The position numbers and the translations under genes are program-made. DNA of 64,000 bases from a candidate division WOR-3 bacterium (lineage in GTDB: Bacteria > Hydrothermota > Tepidihabitantia > SM23-42 > JAOAFX01): positions 31,227 to 95,226 of the forward strand of contig JBDRVV010000004.1 of the NCBI GenBank assembly GCA_039802005.1. Reading direction: 5' to 3'. The notes beneath the pieces are model-generated. The model was given only the letters and a program-made list of their open reading frames with translations. It was not told where the DNA came from and made no database searches. Positions 1,427 to 61,576 of this stretch are shown here, in pieces (within the stretch, counting starts at the first letter, position 1; each line of letters starts with the position of its first letter).

Positions 1427-1503
1427 TAAAATTTTAAATTTTTAGGTATTTTGGTATTTCCCAAACTTTAGGCATTTTGGACTTTTAGGTATTTAGGCAT
1501 TTT

Positions 1504-2751: not shown

Positions 2752-2764
2752 TTAATCCTCCCCA

Positions 2765-3040: not shown

Positions 3041-3046
3041 AAATTT

Positions 3047-4747: not shown

Positions 4748-4751
4748 TTAA

Positions 4752-5102: not shown

Positions 5103-5106
5103 TATC

Positions 5107-6144: not shown

Positions 6145-6149
6145 AGACA

Positions 6150-6177
6150 ATTATAATAAAAAAATACCCAAAGTCAA
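6150..6177 (-). promoter_or_regulatory. Sigma-70-type promoter (TTGACT-N16-TATAAT) for the tdh-acpS-ligase-acp-kbl operon
   Basis: Read on the minus strand, the rny-tdh gap is aatcTTGACTttgggtatttttttatTATAATtgtctATG. Confidence 0.5.
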
Positions 6178-14887: not shown

Positions 14888-15017
14888 CGCTCAATTATAA
14901 AGCATTTTTTAATTTTGTCAATGGGCTCAAACACTATTTCTTATTGAATCTTCTAAAAATGGACAATTATTCAACATTTTTCAGCCCGTATTTTAAATGT
15001 TGATTTTTAAAAATATT

Positions 15018-20386: not shown

Positions 20387-23137
20387 CTATTTTACAAGAA
20401 TAAGTTTGTGGGTCGCGACCTTACCTTCTGCTTCAAGTTTCAAGAAGTAAATCCCGTTTGCAAGATTTTTGGTATCCCAAGAGATTTTTCTGGTACCTGC
20501 TAATTCCATGCCATTGACAAGTGTAGTAACAAGTTTGCCGGTTACATCAAAAACTTTAAGAGAAACATTGGTTGTTCTCGTAAGGGTATAAACAATTACT
20601 GCATCCTTTGTTGGATTGGACATATTGGATGCAAAACCAAAGGTTGAATTAATCTTATGTGCATCAGGTTTTTCTGAAATTCCATATACACCCAGATTAA
20701 TTAAACCTTCTGTAGCATTAGTTGCTGTACCACTTGCGGTATTGTAACCACCCGGGCAGAAGAATGTACCACCATTCAAGGTTGGAACATAGACTGCATT
20801 CTGAGCATTAGAAATTGGAGTCGGTTTATTAAGACTCTGATGCCACTGGTTATCTGCTGGGTCATAATACCAGGTATCGTAGGCAGGTACACCGTGGTCA
20901 TCACCACCCGTGAAGTAGAACTTGCCAAGGACACAAGCACCCTGAACCCTTGAGCGGCCAGGTGTGCCTGATGGTCCGGTCGGAATATTAGGACCCTGGG
21001 ACCAGGTGATAGATTGGGGATTGGTTGGGTTAATCACGCCAATGTATAAATTTGTAACATAATCGCCATTATAACCACCCGCAACAAATATAGTATCACC
21101 AGAAATCCCAATTGCGAATGAGCGATTTGTGGTTGGCAGGTTGGTTCCAGTTGTCCAGGTATTATTTGCGGGGTTATAGATATCAACGCTGTTGTAGTAA
21201 GTTGAACCAGATTGACCACCGATTACATATATCAGGGTATCACGCCAGGCAACTGCACCGAGGAAATGTCTACCAACAGGGAGATTTGCTCGGTCAATAA
21301 CAGTTCCAGCAACCGGGTCAAATTCCTGATTGTAGTTCAAGGCATTAAAGCTATCATCACCGCCACCTATGACATAGATCTTACCATCCACAACAGCAGC
21401 TACACATCTCTGGGTTGCGTGATTTAGAACTGTTGATAGTGTTGTCCAGGTTTCATTGGTACAGTTAAACGCATAAATTGCATTGGTTGCAGATCCAGTA
21501 TTCCCACCAAGTGAATAGACTGTTGGTGTACCAGTAACATCAGTATAGACACAGGCATGGTAATAATTAGGTGCAGGCATTGGATTAGAATATATCTTCC
21601 AGAAAGAAGATTGAGTAACTGTGGTTTTTGAAATTGTATCATTGGATGGATTTGCATCACCACCGAGAGCTGTAAAGGCATATACATTATAGGTGATGCC
21701 ATTGTTTGGTCCGGTTGTCCAGGTAGGAAAGGTCAATGTTGTATCTTCACCAGCAGGAAGTGTAACATTTATAAATTGATTATAAATGGTTGTTCCTGAA
21801 GAGTCTATTTTGAAGTAGCAATTAAAGGTTTCATTATTTTGACCAAAATTCTTGTAGGTAGCAACTGGATTGATTGCAGTATTCGGAAATACGGTGGTGC
21901 CAGGTGCAGCGATTGCTATTGTTCCTACATCATGTGGTAAGCTCCCTCTAAGTTCTACATTATCAAATGCCGCATACCACTCCCAATAAGCATTGGTATA
22001 GGCAAAATAAACCCTTATTGATTCAGCACTTGCATATGCCGAGACATCTACTGAGTCCCAGGCTGGCCCTGAACTTGCATTCTGCCAGCTCCGAAGTTCA
22101 ACAGGTGCCTGCCAGGCACCGCCAGTAAATACCCGCACACCAACCGCCAATTTCTCACTATAACCGCCACTATACCAGTAAAAGGAGTAGCCAAACTTCA
22201 ATAAAAACATATTCATTGGAGGTCTAACCGCAGGGGAATAGGCAGTGTCATTGATGGTAACCGTTCCAGCCGCATCACTATCAATCCAGTAAGATGAATC
22301 ACCGGGTGAAGGACAAGCCCAGGATGCGTGGAGTTGTGACCATTGAACATCCCAACCAGCCGGAAATGCTTGACCATTAGTATGAGTCCAGCCTTGATGA
22401 CCGGTCTCAAAATCCCAGATATAACTGACTGGTGCAGAAGTAGTTCCATAAATCTGGAATGAGGATTCGTGCGGATTGCCAAAGACTGTGGTCGCAGGAA
22501 CCCACTGGGGAAAACCAAAGACTGCGCTCTTGAAATACATCTGCTGGCCATCACCCCAGCCAGGATTATTAGCGGGCCAGGAACAATTATTCCCCCATTG
22601 TGGAGGAAAGAGTAGCGTCGGTTCAAATTCAATCCAGTAACGAGTTCCGGGAAAAGCGTGGAATGGTGGAATTTTTGCAGTGTATTGATAATACAGACCT
22701 AAATTCTGCTCGGTGAATGATACGCGCGCAACATAAATAGGGGCCTGCTTTGGTTGGGGACCACTTGCACCCGTGCTATCTTCATATATCTTTATCCAGA
22801 AATCTACAGGGAGAGTAGGTGTACCGTTCCAGTAGCCACCCCACCAGACAAGGGAATCAACATCTGTTTCAAAAGGTACACTGAAATTATCCGCAATCTC
22901 AGCTTCAAAAGGATAGACACTATCCCACTGGCAAGCATCAAAGGTATAATAACCAGTTGCTGCCTGGTCAAACAGTAACTCACTACGGTCACCGAGAATC
23001 GGTTCCTGACTTATACCTACATTGATTGGACTTTTTAATGTAGGCATAGTATTCTGATTTTGTGCATCAGTGTTGTTATCAGCAAAGACAACCAATGCAA
23101 AAATCAGAATCAATGATAAGCCTAATAATTTCTTCAT
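20387..23137 (-). CDS. Large secreted Kelch/beta-propeller repeat protein with a T9SS C-terminal sorting domain
   Basis: 916 aa with a signal peptide. Kelch-like repeats recur (KIYVIGGGDD, LIYVIGGQSG, IFVAGGYNGD). The last ~70 aa, ending ...NGIYFLKLEAEGKVATHKLILVK, form a Por_Secre_tail-type domain. Confidence 0.6.
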   Translation of the reverse strand: MKKLLGLSLILIFALVVFADNNTDAQNQNTMPTLKSPINVGISQEPILGDRSELLFDQAATGYYTFDACQWDSVYPFEAEIADNFSVPFETDVDSLVWWGGYWNGTPTLPVDFWIKIYEDSTGASGPQPKQAPIYVARVSFTEQNLGLYYQYTAKIPPFHAFPGTRYWIEFEPTLLFPPQWGNNCSWPANNPGWGDGQQMYFKSAVFGFPQWVPATTVFGNPHESSFQIYGTTSAPVSYIWDFETGHQGWTHTNGQAFPAGWDVQWSQLHASWACPSPGDSSYWIDSDAAGTVTINDTAYSPAVRPPMNMFLLKFGYSFYWYSGGYSEKLAVGVRVFTGGAWQAPVELRSWQNASSGPAWDSVDVSAYASAESIRVYFAYTNAYWEWYAAFDNVELRGSLPHDVGTIAIAAPGTTVFPNTAINPVATYKNFGQNNETFNCYFKIDSSGTTIYNQFINVTLPAGEDTTLTFPTWTTGPNNGITYNVYAFTALGGDANPSNDTISKTTVTQSSFWKIYSNPMPAPNYYHACVYTDVTGTPTVYSLGGNTGSATNAIYAFNCTNETWTTLSTVLNHATQRCVAAVVDGKIYVIGGGDDSFNALNYNQEFDPVAGTVIDRANLPVGRHFLGAVAWRDTLIYVIGGQSGSTYYNSVDIYNPANNTWTTGTNLPTTNRSFAIGISGDTIFVAGGYNGDYVTNLYIGVINPTNPQSITWSQGPNIPTGPSGTPGRSRVQGACVLGKFYFTGGDDHGVPAYDTWYYDPADNQWHQSLNKPTPISNAQNAVYVPTLNGGTFFCPGGYNTASGTATNATEGLINLGVYGISEKPDAHKINSTFGFASNMSNPTKDAVIVYTLTRTTNVSLKVFDVTGKLVTTLVNGMELAGTRKISWDTKNLANGIYFLKLEAEGKVATHKLILVK

Positions 23138-30585: not shown

Positions 30586-32180
30586 TAGATTTTAAAATTC
30601 TGTATTACCTTTGCGAGCCTTTCAGTAATATTTAGCAATTCCTGGCTTGTGGCAGCAAATTCCTCAGTTGCTGCTGATTGTTCCTCAAGCGAAGCAAGGA
30701 TTTGCTCTGCCGCAGTAGAATTATCCTTTGAAATATTAAATGAGTCCTCTATTTGTTTCAACATTGCAGTAATTTCTTCTTCTTCTTTGGAAATAACATT
30801 TTTGATATTTTTTATTGCCCCATTCAATTCAATAACCGCATTTGATATTGTGCGTAATGATTCGGTTGTGGATTTAACAACCTGATTTCCATCATATATT
30901 GCCTTTCTTACTTCTTCGGAGCTTTCCGCTACACTTTTTATTGAATCAATCATTTCTTTTACTATTTCCCCGATCTCCATCGCTGAGTTCTGGGTATTAT
31001 CTGCAAGTTTCTTTATTTCATCAGCAACAATGGCAAAACCCTTTCCGAACTCACCCGCACGAGCAGCCTCAATGGAGGCATTGAGGGAGAGAATATTTAT
31101 CTTTTCTGATATTTTATTGATAGTCTCTATTATTTTCGTAATTGTATTTGATACATCATGTAATTTTGCCATCAATCCAATAAGATATTCATACCTGGTT
31201 CCTATAATCTCTATATTTTTTAATGCCATATCACTCATCTGTAATCCATTATTTGCACTTGCTGAAAAATTCTCAGCGTGAGTCTCAACTTTTTTTATGT
31301 TATCAACAACTGAAAAACTTATTTCACTTAAAGACTTACCCATAGAAATTGATTTATCAAGTTCCTGAAACTGGCGGTCAACGCCTTCGGTCATCTTCTG
31401 GGTTGTAGATACAATCTCTGAAATTGCCGTTGACAACTCATTTGATGTTGATGCAATCTGTGCGCTGATTTCGCTCAATTGTTTAGATGTATCAACGACC
31501 AGTTTTATTATATTTGCCTCGGTCTCAACGAGAGTCTTAATAGTTCTGCCTAAAAAATAAATTTCGTCCGGTGCTCCCTTTTCTTCAATATGTACATGCA
31601 AATCTCCCTTCTCCACTTTTTTCAAAACTTCTTGCAGTTCTTTAAGGCGCACAAGGTCACGGTCAAAGTCTACAATGAGTAAGAAAGAAACAAATGTTAA
31701 GAAAATTAGTTTAACTAATTCCATCCCCAAATTTATTTCCGGGTATAAGTTCTGAGTCAAAACCAACATTAAAACATAAGCAAAGTCTACAAGGGCAATG
31801 GCGTAAATTCCATTTTTTATCCCGAGCAGGTAGCCCGGATGCAAGATGATATAGAAATATATCAAAAAGAACGGAATTCTTAATTGAGGTTGAATAAATG
31901 ATAGACAAAATGTTAAAATTGTTGCAGTCACGGTAGTTATGATATAAGGAATTACAGGCGAATAGATATTTTTGGTTGACAGTATGTAAATGACCAGCCC
32001 GAAAATAAAGACAATTGCGGTAAGAACAGGTATAAAGATTGGAACTGGAAAGAACTTTAAAATTGCACCGAATAAAAATACCACCTCAAACAACAGGCAG
32101 AATAGCATAGTTGCCATACTGCCTTTTTTGGCAAAATTTAAACCTTTCAACCTCATATCTTCGTTGGTATTCATTATCAC
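30585..32180 (-). CDS. Methyl-accepting chemotaxis protein with a polytopic (about 6-7 TM) N-terminal sensor region
   Basis: 531 aa. The highly conserved MCP signalling-domain core [33 protein letters not shown] is present. The N-terminal 200 aa are hydrophobic multi-TM. The stop overlaps the response-regulator start. Confidence 0.8.
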
Positions 32181-33424
32181 CTCCTGAAAATTTCCTGGGT
32201 TTTCTTCATCGCACAGAACTCACCACACATAGTGCAGGTGAGTGCGGAATGAGAACGTTTACGTAAAAATATTTTCTTCGCCCTTACGGGATCAATCAAA
32301 AGGTTGATCATTTTTTTCCAGTCAAGAGAGAATCTTGCTTTAGACAAATTAAGGTCACGCATCTTTGCCCCAACCAAGCCTTTACCAATATCTGCAGCGT
32401 GGGCAGCAATTTTTAAGGCAATAACACCTTCACGCACATCTTCCACGCTTGGCAAACCGAGGTGTTCAGCAGGAGTAACATAGCATAAAAAATCCGCCCC
32501 ATAATAAGCAGCAAGGGCACCTCCGATTGCAGCAACGATATGGTCATAGCCTGCTCCAATATCTGTCACCAACGGACCAAGCACATAAAATGGTGCACCA
32601 TCACATATTGTTTTTTGTAATTTGATATTTGCCTCTATCTCATTTATTGGAATATGTCCCGGCCCTTCCACAATTACCGAAACATCATTCATTCTTGCTT
32701 CTTTTACTAAATCACCAATTATCACAAGTTCTCTTATCTGATATTCATCTGTAGCATCACTAATCGCACCAGGTCTCAAACCATCGCCAAGACTAAGTGT
32801 TGCTGTGTATTTCTTTGCTAACTTGAGCAGACGATCGTAATATTCATAGAGAGGATTTTCTTTATTATTTGCCTTCATCCATTCAATCATCATTGAACCA
32901 CCACGACTCACCACACCACAGACTCTTCTCTTTTTTTCCATTCCCCTTATTGCTTCCCTGGTGATACCACAATGGACCGTAATAAAATCAACGCCATCTT
33001 CAAGATGTCTTTCTATTGTTTCAAATATTTCATCAACACTCGCCTTTGTAAAAGGCTTTTTCTTCTTGCGCATATCAATCGCCACTTGATATATCGGTAC
33101 CGTCCCCACTGCCACACTTGATGCATTCAAAATCTCTCTTCTGATTCTATTAATATCTCCACCCGTTGACAAATCCATCACCGCGTCAGCACCACTCTCA
33201 ATAGCAACCTTTAATTTTTTCAACTCATATTTTAAGTTTGCAAAATCAGGCGATGTTCCTATATTGGCATTTATCTTCGTCCGACATCCCTTTCCTAATA
33301 TGAGGGGTTTTATTTTATGAAGGCGACTTTTTATTAAAACCGCGGTTCCGTTTTTTAAATTTTTTTTCAATGTCTCGGTGCTTATCCCTTCTTCTTTTGC
33401 CAGTTTACCAATCAAATCATTCAT
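32177..33424 (-). CDS. thiC: ThiC-family radical SAM enzyme (phosphomethylpyrimidine synthase, or a BzaA/BzaB-like paralog)
   Basis: 415 aa with [17 protein letters not shown] and VGTVPIYQ motifs and a C-terminal [11 protein letters not shown] cluster. This is the short anaerobe-type form. Confidence 0.75.
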
Positions 33425-33666
33425 TTTGCATACTCCACATTAACACCAAGGGAGGTCTTAGGAACTGCATATGCAACAAATTTTAATATAAAATTCATTG
33501 CCTTTTCTTCATTTGGTGCTTCAAATATTAAAACATAATCCGGTTTGCCAAAAAGTGATAAAAATTCTCTAATCTTTATTTCTTCGGGAACTTTTAAAGT
33601 CTTGACTGCATTGAGCAATTCATCAGCACGACCTGGAATAACATCAAGCGTAGTGATAAAAGTCAT
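33421..33666 (-). CDS. GYD-domain protein
   Basis: 81 aa with a GYD-family-like core (GKPDYVLIFEAPNEE). It overlaps the ThiC-family gene start by 4 nt. Confidence 0.4.
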   Translation of the reverse strand: MTFITTLDVIPGRADELLNAVKTLKVPEEIKIREFLSLFGKPDYVLIFEAPNEEKAMNFILKFVAYAVPKTSLGVNVEYAK

Positions 33667-33686: not shown

Positions 33687-33714
33687 ATTATATGCTAAAA
33701 TGTAAAGCTGTCAA
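33687..33714 (-). promoter_or_regulatory. Consensus sigma-70 promoter (TTGACA-N16-TATAAT) for GYD-thiC-MCP-RR, lying inside the 3' end/gap of the upstream GNAT gene
   Basis: The minus-strand read is TTGACAgctttacattttagcaTATAATataatttatgaGGAGGcagaATG. The leader is under about 20 nt. Confidence 0.55.
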
Positions 33715-33728
33715 GAAATAGGTGGATT

Positions 33729-34844
33729 CTATAAAGTGCCTTGATATATTCTATATTTTTTATATAACCTACCACCCATTTTTAAAATTGTATTATTTAC
33801 TGGGTAATTATCCTCAAGGGTCCAGCTCAATTCTCCACTATTGTATCCGAGTTTCATTCCGGCCTTCAAAGTTTCAAGGACCATCAATCCTTCAAGGCCC
33901 AATTTTTGATAATCTTTTTTAACCCCCATTATCATCAATCGAGCCTCCTTAATTTTATTTTTGTAATAGAGAAATTTTATCATTCCAAGGAGGTCTAATT
34001 TACCATTTAGTTTTTTTAGAATAAAGTTATAATTTGGTACAGTTAGAGAAACACCGACCGGAACATTATCAATTTCAACAATTATAACCAATTCGGGGAC
34101 AATGAGATCTTTAAGAGTCTTGGCAATATGAGAGAATTCGGAATCAGTCATTGGTACAAAACCCCAGTTTCTGCTCCAGGCGTCGTTATAGATTTCTTTA
34201 ATCTTTTTCACTTCGTTTGAGAAGTCATCAATATCAACCGGTCTTACCTTTAAATCTCTCACCCTTTTACGAATAAGCGAGCACATTTTTTCTAATCTCT
34301 CAAATGGTGCATTTTTTGCTTCAATATAAAAAGCATATAAATCCTTTGCCTTTGTTAGTCCTGCGGCTTGGGCGAGTTCATGGTAATATTCAAATGTATA
34401 TGTCATCATAATCATCGGCTCTAAGAAATAGCCTTCAAGGAGAAATCCCACCTCTTCATTGGTCGAAGGATTGAATGGACCAACAAATTTAGTCATTCCT
34501 TTTTCTTTATGAAATTCGCGCACGGCATTGAATAATGCCACCGCCGACTCTACATCATCTTCGCACTCAAAGAATCCAAAATATCCAGTCTTCTCATTCC
34601 AGAATTCAATAAAATTGTAATCAACTATTGCACAAACCCTACCAACAACTTCCTTATCGCGATAAACAAGAAACATCTCTCTTTCTGCATGCTCCCAGAA
34701 TGGATAATTTTTCTTATCAAACATATTGTAGACATCTTTTTTTAAAGGTGGAACCCAGTAACGGTTATTTTTGTATAAACGATACGGCAACTCTACAAAA
34801 GACTTTAATTCCTTTTCATCTTTGACCGGAACTACTTTTATCAC
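33729..34844 (-). CDS. Long (371 aa) GNAT-superfamily N-acyltransferase-like protein; candidate bacterial ceramide synthase or N-acyl amino acid synthase
   Basis: 371 aa with no signal peptide. The GNAT assignment rests on length and context; no motif was checked. It overlaps by 4 nt the upstream Spt-like gene. Confidence 0.4.
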   Translation of the reverse strand: MIKVVPVKDEKELKSFVELPYRLYKNNRYWVPPLKKDVYNMFDKKNYPFWEHAEREMFLVYRDKEVVGRVCAIVDYNFIEFWNEKTGYFGFFECEDDVESAVALFNAVREFHKEKGMTKFVGPFNPSTNEEVGFLLEGYFLEPMIMMTYTFEYYHELAQAAGLTKAKDLYAFYIEAKNAPFERLEKMCSLIRKRVRDLKVRPVDIDDFSNEVKKIKEIYNDAWSRNWGFVPMTDSEFSHIAKTLKDLIVPELVIIVEIDNVPVGVSLTVPNYNFILKKLNGKLDLLGMIKFLYYKNKIKEARLMIMGVKKDYQKLGLEGLMVLETLKAGMKLGYNSGELSWTLEDNYPVNNTILKMGGRLYKKYRIYQGTL

Positions 34845-36028
34845 TTTACCAGACCAAATTCTTTAGCGCACCGTCTAAATACATCAAGCACGATATTTAT
34901 ATCTTCGTCTGTATGCGTAGCCATATAACTTGTTCTGATAAGTGCCCTGCCCGGTGGTGTGGCAGGAGAAATAACTGGATTGGCAAATACACCATTTTCA
35001 AAAAGGCTTTTCCAGAAGGCAAAACATTTTTCATCTTCACCGATAATCACGGGGATAACCGGGGTTATGCTCTCACCTGTATCAAGCCCGATATCTTTAA
35101 ATCCCTTTCTCACTCTTTCTGTTACTTCCCAGAGTCTTTTCCGGCGTTCTGGTTCAGTCTTTATTATCTCCAGAGATTTTAACGCACTGGCAACTGATGC
35201 CGGGGTCATACTTGCCGAAAATATGAGTGCGCGGGCAGTATGTCTAATGTGGGTTATCACATCCTTTTCCGCTACGACGAAACCACCAAGTGATGCGAAT
35301 GATTTACTGAATGTACCCATGATTATATCAACTTCATTTAATAAATTGAAGTGTTCACATACACCACGCCCGTGCTCTCCCATCACACCAATGCCATGAG
35401 CATCATCTACAAGCAGCCTCGTGTTAAATTTTTTCTTCAGTTTTACAATCTCCGGTAGATTTATTACATCGCCCTCCATACTGAAAACTCCATCTACCAC
35501 AATCAATTTTCCTTTATTATGGGGTATTGATTTCAATATTCTTTCCAGGTCATTCATATCATTATGTTTAAATTTTTTGACCTCAGCGAATGAAAGTCTA
35601 CAACCATCTATGATGGATGCGTGGTCCTGCCTATCTATGATAATAACATCGTCTTTACCCGCAATCGCAGATATTATTCCGAGGTTAGTTTGAAATCCGG
35701 TTGAAAATACAATTCCATCATCTTTTTCAAAAAAATCGGCGAGCTCTTTTTCAAGTCTGATATGAATATCAAGTGTCCCGTTTAAAAATCTTGAACCAGA
35801 ACAGGTCGAACCATATTTTTGAACCGCTTCAATTGCAGCTCTTTTCAATCTTTCATCTGCAGCAAGTCCAAGATATCCATTGGAACCTATCATAATATAT
35901 TCCCTGCCGTTAATCATTACTCTATGGTCCTGTGCTGATTCAATTGGTGTAAAATAAGGATAAATATTTATACTCTTGGCACGATTTACTGCTTCAACGG
36001 TGGCTTTGCATTTTTTAAATATATCCAT
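34841..36028 (-). CDS. Serine palmitoyltransferase-like alpha-oxoamine synthase (PLP-dependent)
   Basis: 395 aa. The motifs are IGSNGYLGL, GSRFLNGTLD, DGVFSMEGD, DDAHGIG and the PLP-lysine motif GTFSKSFASLGG. The TFSKS form is characteristic of Spt rather than BioF or Kbl. Confidence 0.6.
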   Translation of the reverse strand: MDIFKKCKATVEAVNRAKSINIYPYFTPIESAQDHRVMINGREYIMIGSNGYLGLAADERLKRAAIEAVQKYGSTCSGSRFLNGTLDIHIRLEKELADFFEKDDGIVFSTGFQTNLGIISAIAGKDDVIIIDRQDHASIIDGCRLSFAEVKKFKHNDMNDLERILKSIPHNKGKLIVVDGVFSMEGDVINLPEIVKLKKKFNTRLLVDDAHGIGVMGEHGRGVCEHFNLLNEVDIIMGTFSKSFASLGGFVVAEKDVITHIRHTARALIFSASMTPASVASALKSLEIIKTEPERRKRLWEVTERVRKGFKDIGLDTGESITPVIPVIIGEDEKCFAFWKSLFENGVFANPVISPATPPGRALIRTSYMATHTDEDINIVLDVFRRCAKEFGLVK

Positions 36029-36064
36029 TTTTTTATTATAATGAATTTCTCACTAAAGTCAATA

Positions 36065-37333
36065 TCATAAAATGTTTCGCAAAAACCACTTCAGTTCAAA
36101 GATTTTTTCAATGTCCTTTGCATTCAGGAATTTTCTTGTCTCACAATCTTCCTCAACAATCTTCTTTAAATGCCTTTTTTCTTCCATTGACCTGAACGAA
36201 AGTTTCTGAACCAGATCATACGCTGTCTTTCTATTCATCCCTTTCTCAATCAATCTATTCATCAAATTCTGTGATGCATAAAGCCCAAGACTGTTATTGA
36301 TATTCTCCATCATCCGTTCAGGATAGACCCTTAAATTTTCTAAGACCCATATAATTTTTTTGGTTATATAATGAACAATATGAAATGCATCAGGAATGAT
36401 AACCCTTTCTACCGAAGAATTGGTCAAATCCCTTTCATGCCAGAGATTGATGTTTTCAAACGCTGGTATCAAATAACCCCTGAGGACCTTTACAAGACCA
36501 CATACCCTCTCACAGGTAATTGGATTTTGTTTATGAGGCATTGCTGATGAACCCTTTTGACCTTTCGTAAATGGCTCAGCCACTTCACCAATTTCAGAGC
36601 GTGAAAGATTTCTTATCTCGGTGGCTATTCTCTCAATGGCACAACCATATAGCACAAGGGCGGTTAGCAGAAAGGCATGCCGGTCTCGTGGTATTACCTG
36701 AGTTGAGACCGGTTCCGGCACCAAGTCTAATTTTTTCATAACCTTCTTTTCAATGTCCGGTGGAATAATTGTATAACTACCAACAGCACCTGATAATTTA
36801 CCGAATGCGATTTCTTTTTTTGCCTGACATAACCGCTCTCTTGCCCTCAATACTTCCTGATACCAGGAATTTATTTTATAACCAAATGTGATAGGTTGAG
36901 CGTATATCCCATGGGTTCTCCCAATTTGCGGTGTCTTATGATATTTAACTTCAAGCCTTTTCAAATTTTTTAATAGTTTATCTATATCCTTCAGTACAAT
37001 GTTAAGCCCATCTTTCAATATCAAACCCCAGGCGGTATCAACGAGGTCATAAGAAGTCATACCAAAATGGAGCCATCTTCCCTCTTCTTTACCAATCTTT
37101 TCTCTCACTGCCTCAAGGAATGCAATAACATCGTGGTTTGTTATCTTCTCTATCTCTTCTACCCGCTCAGGGTCAATCTTTATCCTCTCTAATTTTTTAC
37201 CCAATCCCCTTGGAATTATTCTGAGTTCTTCCTGGACCTCTGCGACTGCCTTCTCAACAAGTACCCATACTTCCATTTTATGTTCTTCACTGAATATCTT
37301 TCTTATCTCTTCTGTTTCATATCTTTTTATCAT
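36065..37333 (-). CDS. purB: Adenylosuccinate lyase
   Basis: 422 aa of the fumarase/aspartase family with PurB-like termini. Confidence 0.85.
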   Translation of the reverse strand: MIKRYETEEIRKIFSEEHKMEVWVLVEKAVAEVQEELRIIPRGLGKKLERIKIDPERVEEIEKITNHDVIAFLEAVREKIGKEEGRWLHFGMTSYDLVDTAWGLILKDGLNIVLKDIDKLLKNLKRLEVKYHKTPQIGRTHGIYAQPITFGYKINSWYQEVLRARERLCQAKKEIAFGKLSGAVGSYTIIPPDIEKKVMKKLDLVPEPVSTQVIPRDRHAFLLTALVLYGCAIERIATEIRNLSRSEIGEVAEPFTKGQKGSSAMPHKQNPITCERVCGLVKVLRGYLIPAFENINLWHERDLTNSSVERVIIPDAFHIVHYITKKIIWVLENLRVYPERMMENINNSLGLYASQNLMNRLIEKGMNRKTAYDLVQKLSFRSMEEKRHLKKIVEEDCETRKFLNAKDIEKIFELKWFLRNIL

Positions 37334-37394
37334 AGACTAATTATACCCAGAAAATTTTTGTTTTCAACAAAAATTTTTGATATCTTGCGGAAGT

Positions 37395-38603
37395 CTAATT
37401 GACAAAAATTATCTTTAAATTCTTTAGTTCATTTTCATTCTGTATATGACAGAAATAAATCCCATTTGGCAGGAGAGTATTCGCTTCATCCCTGCCATCC
37501 CAGGCTACAACATATTCTCCAGAGATTTTGAATTCATGCATCAGCCTCCTCACCAGTCTGCCCGATTCATCGTAGATATTTATCTTTACTATTCCGGGTT
37601 TAGATACATAGTAATTGATATTGACTGATTTGTTGAACGGATTCGGCTGAAGGATAAAATTTTTTGTCGCATCCTTGCCTGCTCGGTCAAATTTTTGGTA
37701 TATTGGAATTAAATGGACAGGTTCACCGGGTTTTAAACAGGCAATTGTGCGATTCGGAATTTCAACCCATCTCTGGCTTGATGTATCAAGTGGTTGGGAA
37801 GCAACGACCCAGAAATTGGAAACCAGGGAATCAGGATAATAGTAAACGGTTATTGCCCTTGGTTCTGATTTTGTAAAATTTAATGCCCATAACTTATTAC
37901 CGTCAGACATCACAAAGTTCAATTGCGCATTACTCGTTCCAAGCGCAGAATCGAGTTTAATAACTGCCATCTTAATACATTCCTCAATTGAAAGATCAGG
38001 GTTCATATCTAAAACTTCAATCATTAGTATGGCGAACAAATCAGAATCAAGATAGTTTGGAGCATAATCAGGAGGATTTTGCTCAAGATATAGAGGATTG
38101 ATTGAAGAAATCAATCTTAGTAAAATGTCCGTATTAATTGTACCATTATGGGCAAAGAGTATATCAAAATTTCTTTTAATACATTGTCTCCGAAAAGGAT
38201 GAGGATCAGGAATGCCACCCGTTGGTCCGCTGGAACTCTTACGCACATGGGCAACTGCAGAATTTTTAACATTTCTGAGTAATTCCTTGGTCATTTCTGA
38301 ATATCTGGGGTCAAGTGGTGCAGATGGCTCTCCACGACGGATAACTGGTAAGATTGTATCGCTTTGGGATTCAATAAAATAAGCAATACCCCAACCATCA
38401 GGATTTTTTGCTCCGAGTTTGCGTAAAGAATCAAGGTGGGTTGTGATAATATCACTAATTGCTGGCGTGTTTTCAGACAATATAATACCCCAGAACCTGC
38501 ACTCATGATTTTGTTCCAAATTTTTCCGGCAGGAAATAGTAAAGGATAAAATGATAAATAGAAAAGTAAAATATGGAATATCCTTATTTTTGCATTGGCC
38601 CAT
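37395..38603 (-). CDS. Secreted class-II (Ntn) glutamine amidotransferase-like protein with lipoprotein-type signal and T9SS C-terminal sorting domain
   Basis: 402 aa. A signal peptide and a lipobox-like FTISC precede an Ntn nucleophile context CRFWGII...DGWGIAYF (GATase_6/EgtC-like). The C-terminus ...PNGIYFCHIQNENELKNLKIIFVN is a T9SS sorting domain. Confidence 0.5.
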   Translation of the reverse strand: MGQCKNKDIPYFTFLFIILSFTISCRKNLEQNHECRFWGIILSENTPAISDIITTHLDSLRKLGAKNPDGWGIAYFIESQSDTILPVIRRGEPSAPLDPRYSEMTKELLRNVKNSAVAHVRKSSSGPTGGIPDPHPFRRQCIKRNFDILFAHNGTINTDILLRLISSINPLYLEQNPPDYAPNYLDSDLFAILMIEVLDMNPDLSIEECIKMAVIKLDSALGTSNAQLNFVMSDGNKLWALNFTKSEPRAITVYYYPDSLVSNFWVVASQPLDTSSQRWVEIPNRTIACLKPGEPVHLIPIYQKFDRAGKDATKNFILQPNPFNKSVNINYYVSKPGIVKINIYDESGRLVRRLMHEFKISGEYVVAWDGRDEANTLLPNGIYFCHIQNENELKNLKIIFVN

Positions 38604-38802
38604 ATTTGAATTATATTGATAGAAGATTTGATGTCAACAAAGTAAAATTTCTAAACAAAAATTTGCTATTGGTTAATGGGCATGACTGCCGGTATGGTCT
38701 TTGGACATTGTCATCTGCGTTAAAATTAAAATTTGGCTATTGTTTGGAGTTTGGTGCTTGGGGTTTGGAATTTAACAATTTTTTGGGGCTTGGTTGATTT
38801 GC

Positions 38803-40218
38803 TCATAGTTTTATCACTGATATTATTATCTTTTCTTTAAGATTGTCAGCACAAATAAAATAAATCCCTGGAGGAACTTCATTTGCGTTTTCATCGTTAC
38901 CATCCCAGATAAAATCCACAATTCCTGATTTTTTTGGTGCTAATTTTTTTAATAATCTTCCGTTAATATCATAAATTTTTATATCAGACAGATCCAAATG
39001 TTCTGAAGGAGCAAATTTGATATATAGTTTTTCCCTGAATGGCGAGGGGAATGTTCTTATCTTGATGGGAGATATAGCTTTTTTGCACAATTCCTTAACT
39101 CCCACCGGGTCAGTATATGTCTTAACGAGATAAGCATTATTATCACCAGCACCATAGGAATTGGTTATGCCAGCAATTATGTATCCATTGTCCGATGTTT
39201 TTTTTACTGAATAAGCACAATCTGTGCCTGTACCACCGTAAAGAAACATCCAGAGATTCAACCCAGAAGTATCTGTTCTTACCACATACATTTCATAACT
39301 GAAGTTACCGCCAATTACATAATTATTTTGACCCACTTCCTGAACTGAGAATGCAGTATCGTTATTCAAACTTCCCTGAAACCTACTCCAAATTAATGTT
39401 CCACGCTGGTTATATCTCAAAAGACACCATTCATATCCAAGCAGTGTAAAATATCCAGTTCCACAAACAATATATCCAGAATCTTGAGTCTGTTGAACAC
39501 AGAATCCCTTTTCATCAAGGTAAGAACCATAGAGCCCTGTCCATTCAATGTCTCCCAGCGAATCTATTTTTACAGTGTAAACATCGCTACCACCATTACC
39601 ATAAGAGTATGTTTCGCCCGTTATAATACAGCCATCATCAAATGTGCTGTTCACACAATATGCGTAATCATCCAAATTCCCGCCATAGGTCTTAAACCAG
39701 ATAATATTACCGGTCGAGTCTATTTTTATCAAAAAGACATCGTTATTGCCTGCGCCTGATGAATTTGTTGTTCCACAAATGAGGTATTTATTGTCATAAG
39801 TTTTAACAATTGAATAACCAGATTCTTCAAGTGAGTCTCCATAGGTTTCTGTCCAGATTGAGTCACCATATTCATTTATTTTGATTAAGAATATATCGCC
39901 CATGCCCTGAGTGAATGAATATGTAGTCCCAAGAATCAAATAATTATTATTATCGGTCGGACAGATTGCATAACCATAATCGTCCTGTGAACCACCGAAA
40001 GTTTTTGTCCAAATCGGATAACCCAATGAATCAACTTTAAAAACATAAACATCATATCCACCATTGCCAAAAGAATTTGTTGAGCCCACTGCAATAAATC
40101 CTTTATCTGAACATTCTATAACGGCACGGGCATAATCATCATTGTCACCCCCGTAAATCCTGCCCCATTTAATCTCAGGACTTTGCATTATGAAGATGTT
40201 AAGAAAAATAAAAAACAT
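38803..40218 (-). CDS. Secreted beta-propeller repeat protein with T9SS C-terminal sorting domain
   Basis: 471 aa. Repeats of about 50 aa have the form TNSFGNGGxDVYxxKxDSxGxxxWTKTxGGxxDDYxY. The C-terminus ...PPGIYFICADNLKEKIIISVIKL is a T9SS sorting domain. Confidence 0.5.
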   Translation of the reverse strand: MFFIFLNIFIMQSPEIKWGRIYGGDNDDYARAVIECSDKGFIAVGSTNSFGNGGYDVYVFKVDSLGYPIWTKTFGGSQDDYGYAICPTDNNNYLILGTTYSFTQGMGDIFLIKINEYGDSIWTETYGDSLEESGYSIVKTYDNKYLICGTTNSSGAGNNDVFLIKIDSTGNIIWFKTYGGNLDDYAYCVNSTFDDGCIITGETYSYGNGGSDVYTVKIDSLGDIEWTGLYGSYLDEKGFCVQQTQDSGYIVCGTGYFTLLGYEWCLLRYNQRGTLIWSRFQGSLNNDTAFSVQEVGQNNYVIGGNFSYEMYVVRTDTSGLNLWMFLYGGTGTDCAYSVKKTSDNGYIIAGITNSYGAGDNNAYLVKTYTDPVGVKELCKKAISPIKIRTFPSPFREKLYIKFAPSEHLDLSDIKIYDINGRLLKKLAPKKSGIVDFIWDGNDENANEVPPGIYFICADNLKEKIIISVIKL

Positions 40219-40296
40219 ACCATTTATATTTTATTAATTGCCAATTGTTTGTCAATTTCCCCCTTGACAGGTTTCAGTTTTTGATTATAATAGGTT

Positions 40297-40932
40297 ATGC
40301 TTTCGAATAGAAGACCATTTTGGTCGAAAAATCTAAAGGTGGATTCAATGGCGGTTTCTAAGAAGGCAATGCGGGATGCAATAGTGGATGCTGCCCGCTA
40401 TATCTTTGCAAGATTTGGATATCGCAAGGCAACGATTGATTCAATTGCCCGTGCTGCACGCAAGGGCAAAAGTTCGGTTTATTATTATTTCAAAAATAAA
40501 GAAGAAATTTTTCTGGCGGTTATTGAAAAAGAAGCAAATGCAGTTAAATCCGAGATAAAAAATGCCCTTGCCTCAGCAACCGACCCGCGTGAGAAACTTA
40601 CAATCTATGTCCTTACAAGAATGCGGGTATTCCATCGCATTGCGCGTTTTTATAGTTCATTCCGCGAGGAATATTTAAAAGAGTATGATTTTATCCAGCG
40701 TTTTCGTGAAAATTATGACCGATACGAAACAAAACTCATTCTTGATATTCTGCGGGAAGGAATCAAAAAAAATATCTTTTCAATTCCGGACCCAGCACTG
40801 GCAGCCGGATATTTTGTAACCGCTCTTAAAGGATTTGAATATCTCTGGGGAACCGAAGAAGATATTGACAAACTTGAGAAAAAGACCGAGGCAATGCTGG
40901 AAATGCTTTATCGGGGCATTCTGAAAAGATGA
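40297..40932 (+). CDS. TetR/AcrR-family transcriptional regulator
   Basis: The protein is about 195 aa from the internal Met at about 40348. An N-terminal HTH (ATIDSIARAARKGKSSVYYYFKNKEEIF) is typical of TetR. Confidence 0.75.
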   Translation: MLSNRRPFWSKNLKVDSMAVSKKAMRDAIVDAARYIFARFGYRKATIDSIARAARKGKSSVYYYFKNKEEIFLAVIEKEANAVKSEIKNALASATDPREKLTIYVLTRMRVFHRIARFYSSFREEYLKEYDFIQRFRENYDRYETKLILDILREGIKKNIFSIPDPALAAGYFVTALKGFEYLWGTEEDIDKLEKKTEAMLEMLYRGILKR

Positions 40933-41001
40933 CAAAAATTTTTTTAGTAATTTTCGACCAAAAAACTAAAATGGTCAAAAATTCTGTAAAGGAGAACATA
41001 A

Positions 41002-43230
41002 ATGAAAAGAATTGCATCATTCATTGTTAATAAACAAGCAATTATTCTTTTTGTAATCACTGTATTGAGTTTTCTGTTCGCATTCTTTTTAAGGAAAATT
41101 GTAATAAATTCGGATTTGAGCAGTTATTTACCGAAGACTGACCCGGCGGTTAAACTTCTTGATTATATCGGTGAAAAGTACCGCGGAAATAGTCTCGCTA
41201 TTGTTATAATAAAATCGGATGATGTTTTTAAACTTGAAACCATAAAAGCCATTGACTATCTCACCCGTCAATTCCGTCAGATTGATGGTGTCACTTATGT
41301 AACGAGTTTAACCAATATCCTTGATATTAAAAAAACCGAAGAAGGATTGGAGATTGGTAAATTGATTGATGAAGATAATATTCCTAATCAGGAGGTCTTA
41401 TACAAAATTAAAGAATATGCACTACGTAAAGAAATTTATCGCAATAAATTGATTTCTGAAGATAGCAAGACGACTCTTATCATCTGTCGTATTGATGGGG
41501 ACAAATCAAAGGTGGCAAAGACGATTGAAAGGGTCACGAAAAATGCAGACTTGCAAAATATTAAAACCTATTTTGCCGGTTTGCCTTTCCAGTTGAATGC
41601 GGTAAACGATATGATAATAAAAGATATAAAAATTCTTTTGCCATTTGTGGCACTGGTGATTTTGTTAATTCTCTATTTGAGTTTTGGTTCATTGCTTCAT
41701 GTTGTATTGCCTTTGATCTCGGTTGGTCTGAGTGCCCTGTGGACTATAGGACTTATGGCATTATTAAAAATCCCTCTCACCATTATCACCAATATCATAC
41801 CTGCGATCCTTATGGCAGTTGGTAGCGCCTACGCGATCCATATAATTTGTAAATTTATGGAAGAAAAAGACGAAAATGTTCAAATACGAGCGAAAAATTC
41901 TTTATCCAAGGTAATTATTCCAGTGTTTCTTGCAGCCCTCACGACCATTATAGGTTTCACATCTTTTATCTTTGGGTCTTATCTTATTATGATACAACAG
42001 TTTGGAGTTTTCACATCTTTAGGCATTATTTTTGCATTTTTGCTCAGTATAACTATAATACCAATAATCCTTGGGAATAGCAAGAATTTGAAATTGAATC
42101 AGCGGCAAAATTTGAATTTTTTAAATCGGATAATGGAACACACTGGATATTGGATTCTTCGCCATAAAGACATTGTCTGGATAGTGGGAGCAGTTATTGG
42201 AATAGGATTTTTGTTCGGTACTTCTTTAATAAAAACAAAGGTGGATTTTCTTGATTATTTTAAAGAGAAAAGTTCCATTCGGATCACCGAAAAGATAATG
42301 GAAGAAAGTTTCGGCGGTTCAGTCCCCATACAGATTCTAATAAAAGGAGATTTACAGGACCCCGAAGTCCTCCTGGCAATGAAAGATTTTCACAATTTTC
42401 TTGATACACTCAAAGGCGTATATCACCCACAATCCATAATTGATTTGATTGAAGAAATGAATGATGCAATGGGCGAAGGGAAAAAAATCCCTGATACAAA
42501 AGAAAAAATCAACAATCTCTACTTTCTTCTTGAAGGTGAAGAAACGATTGAACAACTCATTAACGATGATAAGACTGAAGGCATTATCCAGGCAATGACC
42601 GCGGGTGCATATAATGAAGAAAGCGAATTAATAATTAAAAAAATTCGGGACTACATTAAATCCAAGAATAACGGTCTCTATAACTTTGAATTCACTGGCT
42701 CTGCAGTCGTTTACCAGCATCTGAACCAGAGTCTATTAAAAAGTCAGTTAATCAGTCTTATCATTGCAATTGTTGCGATATTTATCTGTTTGCTCTTTCT
42801 CACCCACTCGCTCTCTGCAAGTCTTTTAGGACTAGTGCCGATCTTTTTCGGATTATCTATTCTCTTTGGAACAATGGGATTTTTAAAGATTCCGCTTGAT
42901 GTTGCAACTGTGCTTTTAGGAAGTATCTGCGTGGGAATAGGTATTGATTACTCAATACATTTTCTCAACCGTTATTCTTACGAGCGTAAGCAAAATAATC
43001 CTGAAAAGGCATTGCTTACTTCAATAAAATATACTGGTAGCGCAATTGTAGTAAATGTATTCACGGTAATGTTAGGCTTTTTAGTTTTAATCTTTTCTAA
43101 TCTTGTACCGGTGATAAGATTCGGTATCTTGCTGGGAATAACAATGCTAAGCACTGGTTTGGGCGCAACCGTTCTTTTGCCCGCAGTTATTTTAAAAACA
43201 AAAGAAAACAAAACAAGGAGAACAAAATGA
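41002..43230 (+). CDS. MMPL/RND-superfamily transporter (12 TM helices, two large periplasmic loops)
   Basis: 742 aa. There are two 6-TM bundles (about 200-360 and 560-735), each preceded by a large hydrophilic loop. The SSD/MMPL-like motif GIGIDYSIHF is present. Confidence 0.75.
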   Translation: MKRIASFIVNKQAIILFVITVLSFLFAFFLRKIVINSDLSSYLPKTDPAVKLLDYIGEKYRGNSLAIVIIKSDDVFKLETIKAIDYLTRQFRQIDGVTYVTSLTNILDIKKTEEGLEIGKLIDEDNIPNQEVLYKIKEYALRKEIYRNKLISEDSKTTLIICRIDGDKSKVAKTIERVTKNADLQNIKTYFAGLPFQLNAVNDMIIKDIKILLPFVALVILLILYLSFGSLLHVVLPLISVGLSALWTIGLMALLKIPLTIITNIIPAILMAVGSAYAIHIICKFMEEKDENVQIRAKNSLSKVIIPVFLAALTTIIGFTSFIFGSYLIMIQQFGVFTSLGIIFAFLLSITIIPIILGNSKNLKLNQRQNLNFLNRIMEHTGYWILRHKDIVWIVGAVIGIGFLFGTSLIKTKVDFLDYFKEKSSIRITEKIMEESFGGSVPIQILIKGDLQDPEVLLAMKDFHNFLDTLKGVYHPQSIIDLIEEMNDAMGEGKKIPDTKEKINNLYFLLEGEETIEQLINDDKTEGIIQAMTAGAYNEESELIIKKIRDYIKSKNNGLYNFEFTGSAVVYQHLNQSLLKSQLISLIIAIVAIFICLLFLTHSLSASLLGLVPIFFGLSILFGTMGFLKIPLDVATVLLGSICVGIGIDYSIHFLNRYSYERKQNNPEKALLTSIKYTGSAIVVNVFTVMLGFLVLIFSNLVPVIRFGILLGITMLSTGLGATVLLPAVILKTKENKTRRTK

Positions 43231-43976
43231 AAAAATACATAAAAATAACCAGCATATTCTTTGTTCTGCTGGCTGCAACTCAAACAATAGCGGCTGAGGA
43301 ATCTTTGAATGCCAATGGGGTTTTAAAGAAAGTTGATGAAGTCCTCATGGCACCCAAAGACCTTTCAGCACTGATGAAAATAAATATCATAAATAAAAAT
43401 GGTGATGTGAAAAATCGGGAAGTCCAGATGTACCAGAAAGGTGATAATAAAAGGTTGGTAAAGGTCTTGGCACCTGCAGATCAGAAAGGAATTGGATTTC
43501 TTTCTTTACCCGATGATGTGATCTATGTCTATCTTCCTGCCTATAAAAAGACCAGACGCATCGCCGCCCATGTGAAAAATCAGAAATTTGTGGGCACAGA
43601 TTTCACCTACGAAGACCTTGAGGCTAAGAAATATTCTGAGAAGTGGCAACCAGAAGGTTTAAAGAATGATGGGGTATTTTACTTACTTGAGCTCAGTCCC
43701 AAACCTGGTCATATCTCCGAATATGCGCGGGTAAATCTGTATGTGCGAAAGGATGATTACTTTCCAGTGAAATCCGAATTTTTCAACAAAAAAGGCGAGA
43801 TGATAAAAAAAATGGAAATCCTGAAAACAGAAATAATAAAAGGATATATCATACCCAAGAACTATCTTATGCAGGACATACGCAGTGGCAATAGAACCGA
43901 AATGGTAATGGAAGAGATAAAGGTTGATACCGGCTTAAAAGATGATATCTTCACGGAGCGAAATCTTGCCCAGTAA
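43227..43976 (+). CDS. Outer-membrane lipoprotein-sorting (LolA-like, DUF1329-type) periplasmic protein
   Basis: 249 aa with a signal peptide. Its start overlaps the MMPL gene stop by 4 nt. The assignment is the family typically paired with MMPL/RND exporters. Confidence 0.5.
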   Translation: MKKYIKITSIFFVLLAATQTIAAEESLNANGVLKKVDEVLMAPKDLSALMKINIINKNGDVKNREVQMYQKGDNKRLVKVLAPADQKGIGFLSLPDDVIYVYLPAYKKTRRIAAHVKNQKFVGTDFTYEDLEAKKYSEKWQPEGLKNDGVFYLLELSPKPGHISEYARVNLYVRKDDYFPVKSEFFNKKGEMIKKMEILKTEIIKGYIIPKNYLMQDIRSGNRTEMVMEEIKVDTGLKDDIFTERNLAQ

Positions 43977-44093
43977 AAAAATTATCCTCTCCTTTACCCC
44001 CCGAAACAAGCCTATCCTGGCGCCACGCCAGGATTCGGGACAGGTTCTCTCCCACAGGCGGAGAGATTAACTGAGAAATCCAAGGAGGTCAAA

Positions 44094-45422
44094 ATGAAAT
44101 TACAAAAAATAAATAAAATAATTATAATATTTTTTGCATTAAACCTTGTCTTCGGTCTTGATTGGTCTGGATATTTTTCCACAGACCATAGATTTCTGAT
44201 AAAAGAATACGCACCACTGTCTTTTGAAGAATACAGACTAACTCTAAATCCCCAGCAGAGCATCTATGATAATATCAAATTCTCCAGCGAAATCTGGCTT
44301 CGTTCATCCGGTCTGCCCGAAATAGAAAATCTTGATGACCTTTTTACAAAGGACAGGATTACACCATTTGAAATTGATATTCGCGAGGCATACATTGATA
44401 TTCTAAAATTTCCTGTGGAAAATATTGATATGCGGATTGGACGACAGCGGATTGCCTGGGGAACTGCAGACAAGATAAATCCCACCGATAACCTGAATCC
44501 CCTTGACCTTGAAGATATCTGGGATTTTGGCAGACATCTTGGGTCAAACGGAATTAAGATTGAAGGCTATATTAAAGATTTTAACCTCTCTTATATCTTT
44601 ATTCCGCGATTCACACCGGCATTATTACCGCAGAATGCATTATACACAAATTATTCTAATATCACACTTCCACCGGGTATCAATCCTGCACAAATTACTA
44701 ACTCAATTTCTATGCCCGATTACAATATAAAGAATTCAATACAAGGATTGCGGGTAAAAAAGAATCTCTTTAACTTTGACTTCTCAATGAGTTATGTCTA
44801 TGGAAGAGATGGCATTCCAATCTTAAAAAATACCACAATTATCCCAGTGGATATGCTCGGTAATGTTAATATCTACAACGAACTTGCCTTTCCTAAAATG
44901 CAGATATTTGGCATGGATTTTGCCGGTGCAATTGGTGATATTGGAATATGGGCAGAAGGCGCATTATTCTTGCCCGAGAGTATTCATTACGAGATTGATT
45001 TATCACAACTGGGAATGGGTGTGCTGGATTCTTTGATTCTTGATAAAAAACCATATGCGAAATTCGTGCTCGGTAGTGATTATACATTCAAAAATGGCAT
45101 TTATATTAACCTGCAGTATGTTCATGGATTTTTCCAAGAGCGTGGCAAAGAAATTGAAGATTACATATTACTCGGTTTGGAATGGAAATTATTTGAAGAT
45201 AAATTGAAACTGATGCCGCTGGCTGGTGGCTTTGAAATTAAGGATTTTTCTGATTTCAAGAACAATTATGCATTTGTTTATGCCCCTGAAATTTCTTATA
45301 AACCAGTTGAAAACTGTGAGCTAATTCTTGGGGCGCGGGTGATTGATGGAAAAGAGATAACAAACTTTGGCAGATTGAAACAGAATGACGAGTTTGTATT
45401 GAAGGCAAGATACAGCTTCTAA
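44094..45422 (+). CDS. Outer-membrane beta-barrel protein (DUF1302-like)
   Basis: 442 aa with a signal peptide, alternating amphipathic strands and a C-terminal aromatic residue (...KARYSF) typical of OMP barrels. Confidence 0.5.
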   Translation: MKLQKINKIIIIFFALNLVFGLDWSGYFSTDHRFLIKEYAPLSFEEYRLTLNPQQSIYDNIKFSSEIWLRSSGLPEIENLDDLFTKDRITPFEIDIREAYIDILKFPVENIDMRIGRQRIAWGTADKINPTDNLNPLDLEDIWDFGRHLGSNGIKIEGYIKDFNLSYIFIPRFTPALLPQNALYTNYSNITLPPGINPAQITNSISMPDYNIKNSIQGLRVKKNLFNFDFSMSYVYGRDGIPILKNTTIIPVDMLGNVNIYNELAFPKMQIFGMDFAGAIGDIGIWAEGALFLPESIHYEIDLSQLGMGVLDSLILDKKPYAKFVLGSDYTFKNGIYINLQYVHGFFQERGKEIEDYILLGLEWKLFEDKLKLMPLAGGFEIKDFSDFKNNYAFVYAPEISYKPVENCELILGARVIDGKEITNFGRLKQNDEFVLKARYSF

Positions 45423-60643: not shown

Positions 60644-61576
60644 ATGAAAATACTTGTTACTGGCGGTGCAGGTTTTATTGGTTCACATATTGTAGATGCT
60701 TATATAAATGAAGGTCATAATGTAGTAATCATTGATGACCTCTCAACCGGTGATATTAAAAATGTAAATTCTAAGGCAATTTTTGTCAAACAGGATATCA
60801 TTAGTCATGAAATTGAAGAAATATTTAAAAGATATAACTTTGACATTGTAAACCATCATGCAGCCCAGATAAATGTGCGTCGTTCTCTTGACGATCCATT
60901 ATTCGATGCCAAGGTAAATGTAATGGGTTCGCTAAATTTACTCAGTCTTTCTGCAAAATATAATGTTAAAAGGTTTATTTTTGCTTCAAGTGGCGGTGCC
61001 ATCTATGGGGAACCCGAAAAATTCCCTATCACCGAAGATTTTAAACCCGAACCACTATCTCCTTATGGTGTTGCAAAACTCACGGTAGAAAATTATATAA
61101 AAGTTTTTGCAAGACTATATAATTTTGATTATGTAATTCTGCGGTACAGTAATGTATACGGTCCAAGACAGATCTCCAAGAGCGAGGCGGGTGTCATATC
61201 AATATTCATAAACCAGATCCTTGAAAATAAAGAATGTTTTGTAAATGGTGATGGTAACCAGGTACGAGACTATGTCTATGTTGGAGATGTAGTAAAAGCA
61301 AATCTCTATGCCCTTAATTCCTGCCCGGGATATTTTAATATTGGCACCGGAATCGAAACCAGTGTCAACGATTTGCTTGATATTTTTAGCACAATACTTA
61401 AAAAAGAGATAGCCCATAAACACCGGGAACCAATACCAGGAGAAGTATTCAAGAATGTCCTTGATTATTCTAAAGCGAGAAAAACTTTTAACTGGTCGCC
61501 CGAAGTTCCGTTGATAAAGGGAATTGAGCTAACCTATAGATATTTTTATAATGAAAGGCAAGGCAAGGTATCTTGA
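60644..61576 (+). CDS. NAD-dependent epimerase/dehydratase (UDP-sugar 4-epimerase-like SDR)
   Basis: 310 aa with an N-terminal GGAGFIGSH Rossmann motif and YxxxK catalytic dyad context (SPYGVAK). Confidence 0.75.
   Translation: MKILVTGGAGFIGSHIVDAYINEGHNVVIIDDLSTGDIKNVNSKAIFVKQDIISHEIEEIFKRYNFDIVNHHAAQINVRRSLDDPLFDAKVNVMGSLNLLSLSAKYNVKRFIFASSGGAIYGEPEKFPITEDFKPEPLSPYGVAKLTVENYIKVFARLYNFDYVILRYSNVYGPRQISKSEAGVISIFINQILENKECFVNGDGNQVRDYVYVGDVVKANLYALNSCPGYFNIGTGIETSVNDLLDIFSTILKKEIAHKHREPIPGEVFKNVLDYSKARKTFNWSPEVPLIKGIELTYRYFYNERQGKVS

Follow-up and report, generated by a model that had tools for sequence, protein, structure and literature searches.

The bacterial ceramide synthase bCerS was reportedly defined in a Nat Chem Biol paper of 2022. 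The ceramide genes of Caulobacter crescentus are spt (CC_1162, serine palmitoyltransferase, Spt), cerS or bcerS (CC_1154), cerR (CC_1164), acpR (CC_1163), and aasR (CC_1165). CC_1154, named cerS in PMC11324152, is listed along with Escherichia coli yghO (ECD_02850) as the N-acyltransferase gene required for dihydroceramide (PMC9386255). The order of the steps is debated between two laboratories: for Caulobacter, N-acylation of 3-ketodihydrosphingosine has been proposed (PMC11087976), while another group holds that reduction comes first (PMC11324152). The yghO gene of the non-K-12 E. coli strain 2011C_3361 is located next to an operon for a fatty acyl-AMP ligase (aasR), an NAD-dependent epimerase, an acyl carrier protein (ACP), and Spt. 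In E. coli K-12, IS5 abuts yghO in place of the aasR-epimerase-acp-spt operon (L006 3044..5341 versus L007), so that, of the whole cluster, the acyltransferase gene alone remains in K-12. In sphingolipid-producing Bacteroidota, the three ceramide genes are unlinked (PMC11334938). Here, a 64,000-nt stretch of DNA from a candidate division WOR-3 bacterium (the window; coordinates are positions within it) is described, in which a gene for a 395-amino-acid (aa) alpha-oxoamine synthase overlaps a gene for a 371-aa GNAT-like protein. The pair is probably a self-contained bicistronic operon whose products carry out steps one and two of ceramide synthesis in bacteria.

The two open reading frames (ORFs), their 4-nt overlap, and the motifs GSNGYLGL (at residue 48) and GTFSKS (at residue 238) of the 395-aa protein are all present as described in the original prediction, on the minus strand, which it had not given. 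Both ORFs are evidently real genes, because the full-length homologues of each number in the hundreds to thousands; the nearest homologues of the 371-aa protein are named candidate division WOR-3. At the junction (...GTA AAG TGA / GTG ATA AAA...), the spt stop codon and the start codon of the GNAT gene share nucleotides (Table 1), which points to translational coupling.

The 395-aa protein is supported as a Spt of the Bacteroidota/Sphingobacterium type, neither a BioF nor a Kbl. Its top NCBIfam family is NF047600 (SerpalmtaseCFB, the Bacteroidota type), at 560 bits, and it scores below the cut-offs of both BioF (TIGR00858, 390 versus 426 bits) and Kbl (NF005394, 382 versus 460 bits). The top sequence match in the PDB is the Sphingobacterium multivorum SPT (SmSPT; 3a2b, 8guh) with 433 bits and an alignment of 372 residues without gaps, followed by the Sphingomonas SPT (~300 bits), the Thermus BioF/Kbl enzyme (~272), Kbl (~245), the cysteate acyltransferases SulA/CapB (239-243), and BioF (~210). 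When the alignment was compared residue by residue with the active-site set of SmSPT described in PMC10196870, 13 of the 14 residues proved to be kept (N50, G78, S79, F81, H136, S183, D208, A210, H211, T239, S241, K242, and F270). The sole mismatch is M271 of SmSPT, which touches the substrate via its main chain and is replaced by I269. The window's own Kbl paralogue deviates at four of the positions that match SmSPT. A neighbour-joining tree of 59 synthases, built without bootstrap, places the 395-aa protein and its WOR-3 relatives (L002, L008) inside a clade of GNAT-adjacent synthases and SmSPT, to which the proteobacterial SPTs are sister, with Kbl and BioF outside. Profile ranking, PDB ranking, active-site residues, and tree thus all agree with the earlier assignment to the Spt type rather than to BioF or Kbl, and the phylogenetic check named at that time has put the synthase with Spt, not within BioF.

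For the 371-aa protein, full-length membership in YghO/bCerS, the bacterial ceramide synthase family, is supported. In BLASTP, it is 32% identical to E. coli YghO from end to end (residues 9-368 versus 25-387, E 1e-68), and a confident AlphaFold2 model has a tandem-GNAT fold. Together with the literature link between YghO and CC_1154, these findings uphold the kinship to bacterial ceramide synthase that was suspected at first; the other option offered then, an aminolipid acyltransferase of the OlsB/GlsB type, found no match among these families in the Pfam and NCBIfam profile scans. Pfam gave a weak Acetyltransf_1 match alone (residues 252-352), NCBIfam no match at E < 0.01, and a sequence search of the PDB no match at E up to 1.

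The pairing itself is widely conserved. Relatives of the 371-aa protein were sought in one genome per species; more than 597 were found and the best 80 loci kept, which come from Zixibacteria, Elusimicrobiota, Ignavibacteria, Bacteroidota, Nitrospirota, Gemmatimonadota, Acidobacteriota, Myxococcota, and others. Linkage was counted in the 71 of these 80 loci with enough upstream sequence. A Spt-like gene lies within 7 kb of the GNAT homologue in 49 of the 71 and directly upstream on the same strand in 36, a CerR-like epimerase-family gene is present in 37, and genes of both kinds occur together in 35. Epimerase-Spt-GNAT operons also occur in metagenomic contigs, Elusimicrobia and others, and the linked epimerases match the epimerase of the E. 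coli cluster over the full length (E 1e-33 to 1e-35). In WOR-3, the order purB-spt-GNAT recurs in four loci (L002, L008, L088, and L089), and two complete chromosomes with this unit are CP070705.1 and CP070686.1; the 4-nt ATGA/GTGA overlap is found again in L088, L089, and L008, while L002 has a 9-nt gap.

A PAP2-family gene stands beside the GNAT gene in about 15 loci. Such genes are frequent GNAT neighbours in other phyla. The membrane protein encoded at 9114..10055 of L001, which matches PAP2_C weakly, is one example, and others are found in L015, L018, L020, L022, L030, L041, L051, L059, L066, and L074. It is a candidate head-group transferase; the window has no PAP2 counterpart.

Transcription of the pair appears to be independent of its neighbours. 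A promoter-like site (11 of 12 positions in a consensus scan) lies inside the 36-nt gap between purB and spt and recurs before spt in the WOR-3 relatives L088, L089, L002, and L008. Between the end of its -10 box and the spt ATG there are 6 nt; if the site functions as a promoter as predicted, the spt transcript would be leaderless or nearly so. Equally good sites precede purB, the ORF at 38603, and the gene of the GYD-domain protein; the interval from the GNAT stop codon to the last of these (33687..33714) showed no terminator-like site. In the whole window, 22 promoter-like sites match the consensus at 11 or more of 12 positions, every one with a 16-nt spacer, and 13 of the 22 end 2-9 nt, mostly 5-6 nt, before a start codon. 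Looser matches are no more numerous than in shuffled controls, so the case for these promoters lies in their position, not in their number. The pattern suggests that leaderless or near-leaderless transcription may be widespread in this WOR-3 genome. Given its own promoter-like site and the recurring purB-spt-GNAT order, the pair is best read as a two-gene unit separate from purB and thiC, and its place between them as lineage synteny rather than shared function. The flanking purB, the pair, and thiC do all run in the same direction, as the original prediction had it; what had seemed an odd context is explained by the separate promoter-like sites before purB, spt, and GYD-thiC.

Table 1. Genes and predicted sites in the window discussed in the text
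Feature	Position	Strand	Remarks
spt	34841..36028	-	395-aa alpha-oxoamine synthase; ATG start; pyridoxal phosphate lysine K242 in GTFSKS
bcerS-like	33729..34844	-	371-aa tandem-GNAT N-acyltransferase; GTG start; YghO/CC_1154 family
GTGA overlap	34841..34844	-	spt stop TGA and bcerS-like start GTG share 4 nt
spt promoter-like site	36035..36062	-	TTGACT, 16-nt spacer, TATAAT; 11/12
GYD-thiC promoter-like site	33687..33714	-	TTGACA, 16-nt spacer, TATAAT; 12/12; downstream limit of spt-bcerS unit
purB	36065..37333	-	Upstream of spt; TIGR00928 464 bits, above cut-off
GYD-domain ORF	33421..33666	-	81 aa; between GNAT gene and thiC
thiC	32177..33424	-	Downstream of the pair; ThiC 590 bits, above cut-off
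Near-consensus sigma-70-type sites (examples)	38610..38637, 37340..37367, 36035..36062, 14894..14921, 40264..40291		
tdh-acpS-ligase-ACP-kbl-DAO array	296..6150	-	Operon-like; one strong promoter-like site at 6177..6150 before tdh
AMP-binding ligase	3047..4747	-	Passes acetate-CoA ligase cut-off (795 vs 729 bits)
Carrier protein (ACP)	2765..3025	-	86 aa; ATG start; GIVDSFS motif
kbl (second alpha-oxoamine synthase)	1504..2751	-	Kbl 633 bits, cut-off 493
TetR, HAE3-type RND/MMPL transporter, LolA-like, 442-aa protein	40297..45422	+	12/12 promoter-like site in front
HAE3-type RND transporter	41002..43230	+	Preceded by TetR, followed by LolA-like and then 442-aa protein
GalE-like gene	60644..61576		Only epimerase-family gene of the window
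Candidate secreted protein	37395..38603	-	Class-II glutamine amidotransferase domain; T9SS C-terminal sorting domain
Candidate secreted protein	38803..40218	-	
Candidate secreted protein	20387..23137	-	Kelch-repeat protein; T9SS C-terminal sorting domain

Several observations weigh against a ceramide function of the pair. The score of the 395-aa protein lies below the curated equivalog cut-off of NF047600 (560 versus 640 bits), so that NCBI rules would not name it Spt, and the other NCBIfam Spt models also stay under their cut-offs (BetaP 426 versus 500 bits, AlphaP 349 versus 670). The 371-aa protein is tied to the Caulobacter bCerS indirectly, by way of E. coli YghO and published work. No Spt is found within 7 kb in 22 of the 71 YghO-family loci (L009, L012, L016, L017, L026, L034, and 16 others), three of which are in WOR-3 genomes, at 43-47% identity. 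The family may therefore have roles beyond the Spt-linked one, and the genes without Spt could be either orthologues that have no linkage or paralogues that act on a different substrate. A full-text literature search turned up no connection between WOR-3 and sphingolipids, and the supplements of a Black Sea study of such lipids do not mention WOR-3. Finally, tblastn with three CerR-like proteins found no CerR-type reductase in the 64-kb window.

We infer the chemistry of the pair, including its substrates, the order of steps, and its lipid product, from homology as follows. Spt would join L-serine to a long-chain acyl thioester, for which acyl-CoA is the likeliest candidate by analogy with the Sphingobacterium enzyme, and thereby yield 3-ketodihydrosphingosine. 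The coupled YghO/bCerS-type GNAT would N-acylate this base or its reduced form in the cytoplasm, giving an oxidised ceramide or dihydroceramide. Reduction of the 3-keto group would fall to a gene outside the window or would not occur at all, and the head group would be added elsewhere. Sequence alone cannot decide between the acylation-first and the reduction-first order.

The reductase deserves separate consideration. The sole tblastn match of the CerR-like queries is the N-terminal half of the GalE-like gene, at 42-81 bits. It was rejected as CerR: it scores 195 bits with GalE, 49 with HpnA, and 42 with E. coli CerR, and the CerR-like proteins themselves match HpnA/OleD-type models best. The related WOR-3 loci with the purB-spt-GNAT order also lack a linked CerR, and a Zixibacteria CerR query returned no WOR-3-named match among the top 120, few of which carry names. 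Since the ceramide genes are unlinked in Bacteroidota too, an unlinked reductase elsewhere in the genome would be the simplest expectation. It is unlikely, though worth keeping in view, that the WOR-3 lineage truly lacks CerR, so that the minimal leaderless operon would yield a 3-keto (oxidised) ceramide as the end product or a non-homologous reductase would be used. If this were true, the conserved coupling of Spt and bCerS in the absence of CerR would be natural evidence for N-acylation before reduction in bacteria.

Serine may also not be the true substrate. With the same two-step chemistry, the pair could make a sphingolipid-like N-acyl amino-ketone or amino-alcohol from alanine or glycine, with 1-deoxy or 1-desoxymethyl bases. 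According to PMC10196870, SmSPT takes L-alanine and glycine at lower efficiency; the Black Sea study reported 1-deoxyceramides and proposed other amino-acid substrates for Spt-like enzymes, and the Spt score under the equivalog cut-off leans the same way. However, the residues that position the serine hydroxyl via water (N52, G80, and S243, SmSPT numbering) are all kept, in addition to the near-complete active site as a whole, which makes this alternative quite unlikely. Use of cysteate by a synthase of the CapB/SulA type, with sulfonolipids such as N-acyl capnine as the product, is very improbable. Bacteria of the FCB group do make sulfonolipids with a Spt-like synthase, and the structures of SulA (7u7h) and a cysteate-C-fatty acyltransferase (28eh) are detectable homologues of the 395-aa protein, but their scores are far below that of SmSPT, the tree groups the protein with SPT, and neither a cysteate synthase nor a capnine reductase gene was present among the window genes scanned. 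Scarcely tenable is a chance neighbourhood of a BioF/Kbl-type housekeeping synthase and a GNAT acetylating another amine: housekeeping genes flank the pair, the domain match of the GNAT is weak, and some homologues lack a nearby Spt, but this reading is largely refuted by synteny, with the overlap kept in WOR-3 and Spt directly upstream in genomes of many phyla, and the synthase is under both the BioF and Kbl cut-offs while a bona fide Kbl is already encoded in the window. The assignment of the pair to Spt and bCerS is preferred over all of these.

The more distant genes were also considered. The original prediction had the window encode most of a sphingolipid-like pathway, with a dedicated ACP, an acyl-ACP synthetase, and AcpS at 2765-5102 and a MMPL/LolA-like exporter at 41002-45422. 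This broader view is not supported: CerR is missing from the window, and these additional components found no support. The ACP and the ligase lie 29 kb from the spt-bcerS pair inside a tdh-kbl operon, in which tdh scores 484 bits (cut-off 458), and which also holds AcpS, a DAO-family oxidase, and the kbl gene that had escaped the earlier description. The ligase shares only 23% identity with E. coli AasR, and the ACP gave no BLASTP match to E. coli AcpR. In none of 87 related loci does the 7-10 kb around the GNAT homologue contain an ACP, AcpS, MMPL, LolA-like, or 442-aa gene. An AcpR/AasR system made of this ACP, ligase, and AcpS was rejected on account of the Acs-type score of the ligase, the missing AcpR match, and the missing linkage; the MMPL and LolA-like genes were rejected as a linked exporter because no related locus has a conserved linkage to the spt pair. 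The ACP, ligase, AcpS, and MMPL genes of the window should thus not be annotated as sphingolipid genes.

The order ligase-ACP-synthase resembles the proteobacterial aasR-acpR-spt, though the scores of synthase and ligase exceed the respective Kbl and Acs cut-offs. What reads as a threonine-breakdown operon thus includes an ACP and an AcpS; the same gene order is found in L090 and L091. The ligase-ACP-Kbl operon might belong to a pathway to amino-ketones that depends on ACP, instead of simply breaking down threonine. The genes around the HAE3-type transporter, of which the 442-aa protein has a faint DUF1302 match, look like a module for the export of lipids or hydrophobes.

Close to the pair, the GYD-domain ORF had been overlooked; its overlap with the thiC start is 4 nt, and the GYD-thiC pair recurs in locus L088. 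Three ORFs on the minus strand encode candidate secreted proteins, two of them with C-terminal sorting domains of the type IX secretion system (T9SS; Table 1), which would fit an FCB-related lineage.

Taken as predicted, the pair provides evidence, at the level of sequence, for an ability of some bacteria of the uncultured candidate division WOR-3 to synthesise the ceramide backbone. This would extend by one lineage the increasing number of bacteria regarded as likely sphingolipid producers. The coupling of Spt and bCerS is commoner than the linkage of CerR, which fits the acylation-before-reduction model. As a compact unit, predicted to carry its own promoter, the two genes should be easy to express heterologously.

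When compared with known systems, the locus resembles Caulobacter in that Spt and a YghO-family N-acyltransferase would perform two cytoplasmic steps. Unlike in Caulobacter, the Spt is of the Bacteroidota and not of the Rhodobacteria type, no AcpR/AasR counterpart adjoins the pair, and no cerR lies in the window; spt and bcerS overlap, whereas CC_1154 and CC_1162 are eight locus tags apart. The overlap also sets the window apart from Bacteroidota, where the ceramide genes are not clustered (PMC11334938). The E. coli cluster shares both families, with a full-length YghO identity of 32% and a Spt identity of 40%, but it is a full five-gene set with a dedicated ACP and a fatty acyl-AMP ligase, in which yghO is divergent, whereas the window has two genes only, predicted to be co-transcribed. 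SmSPT is the closest solved relative of the window Spt, which keeps its H138, D210, H213, and K244 (SmSPT numbering) and differs from it by the isoleucine at M271. Compared with the epimerase(CerR)-Spt-GNAT operons of Elusimicrobiota, Zixibacteria, Nitrospirota, Myxococcota, and others, the WOR-3 version sits after purB and has neither a linked reductase nor the frequent PAP2 neighbour; the order and the families are the same, with 48-60% identity for Spt and 40-51% for the GNAT protein. The spt-bcerS pair adds a further case to a system already known and does not represent a new one.

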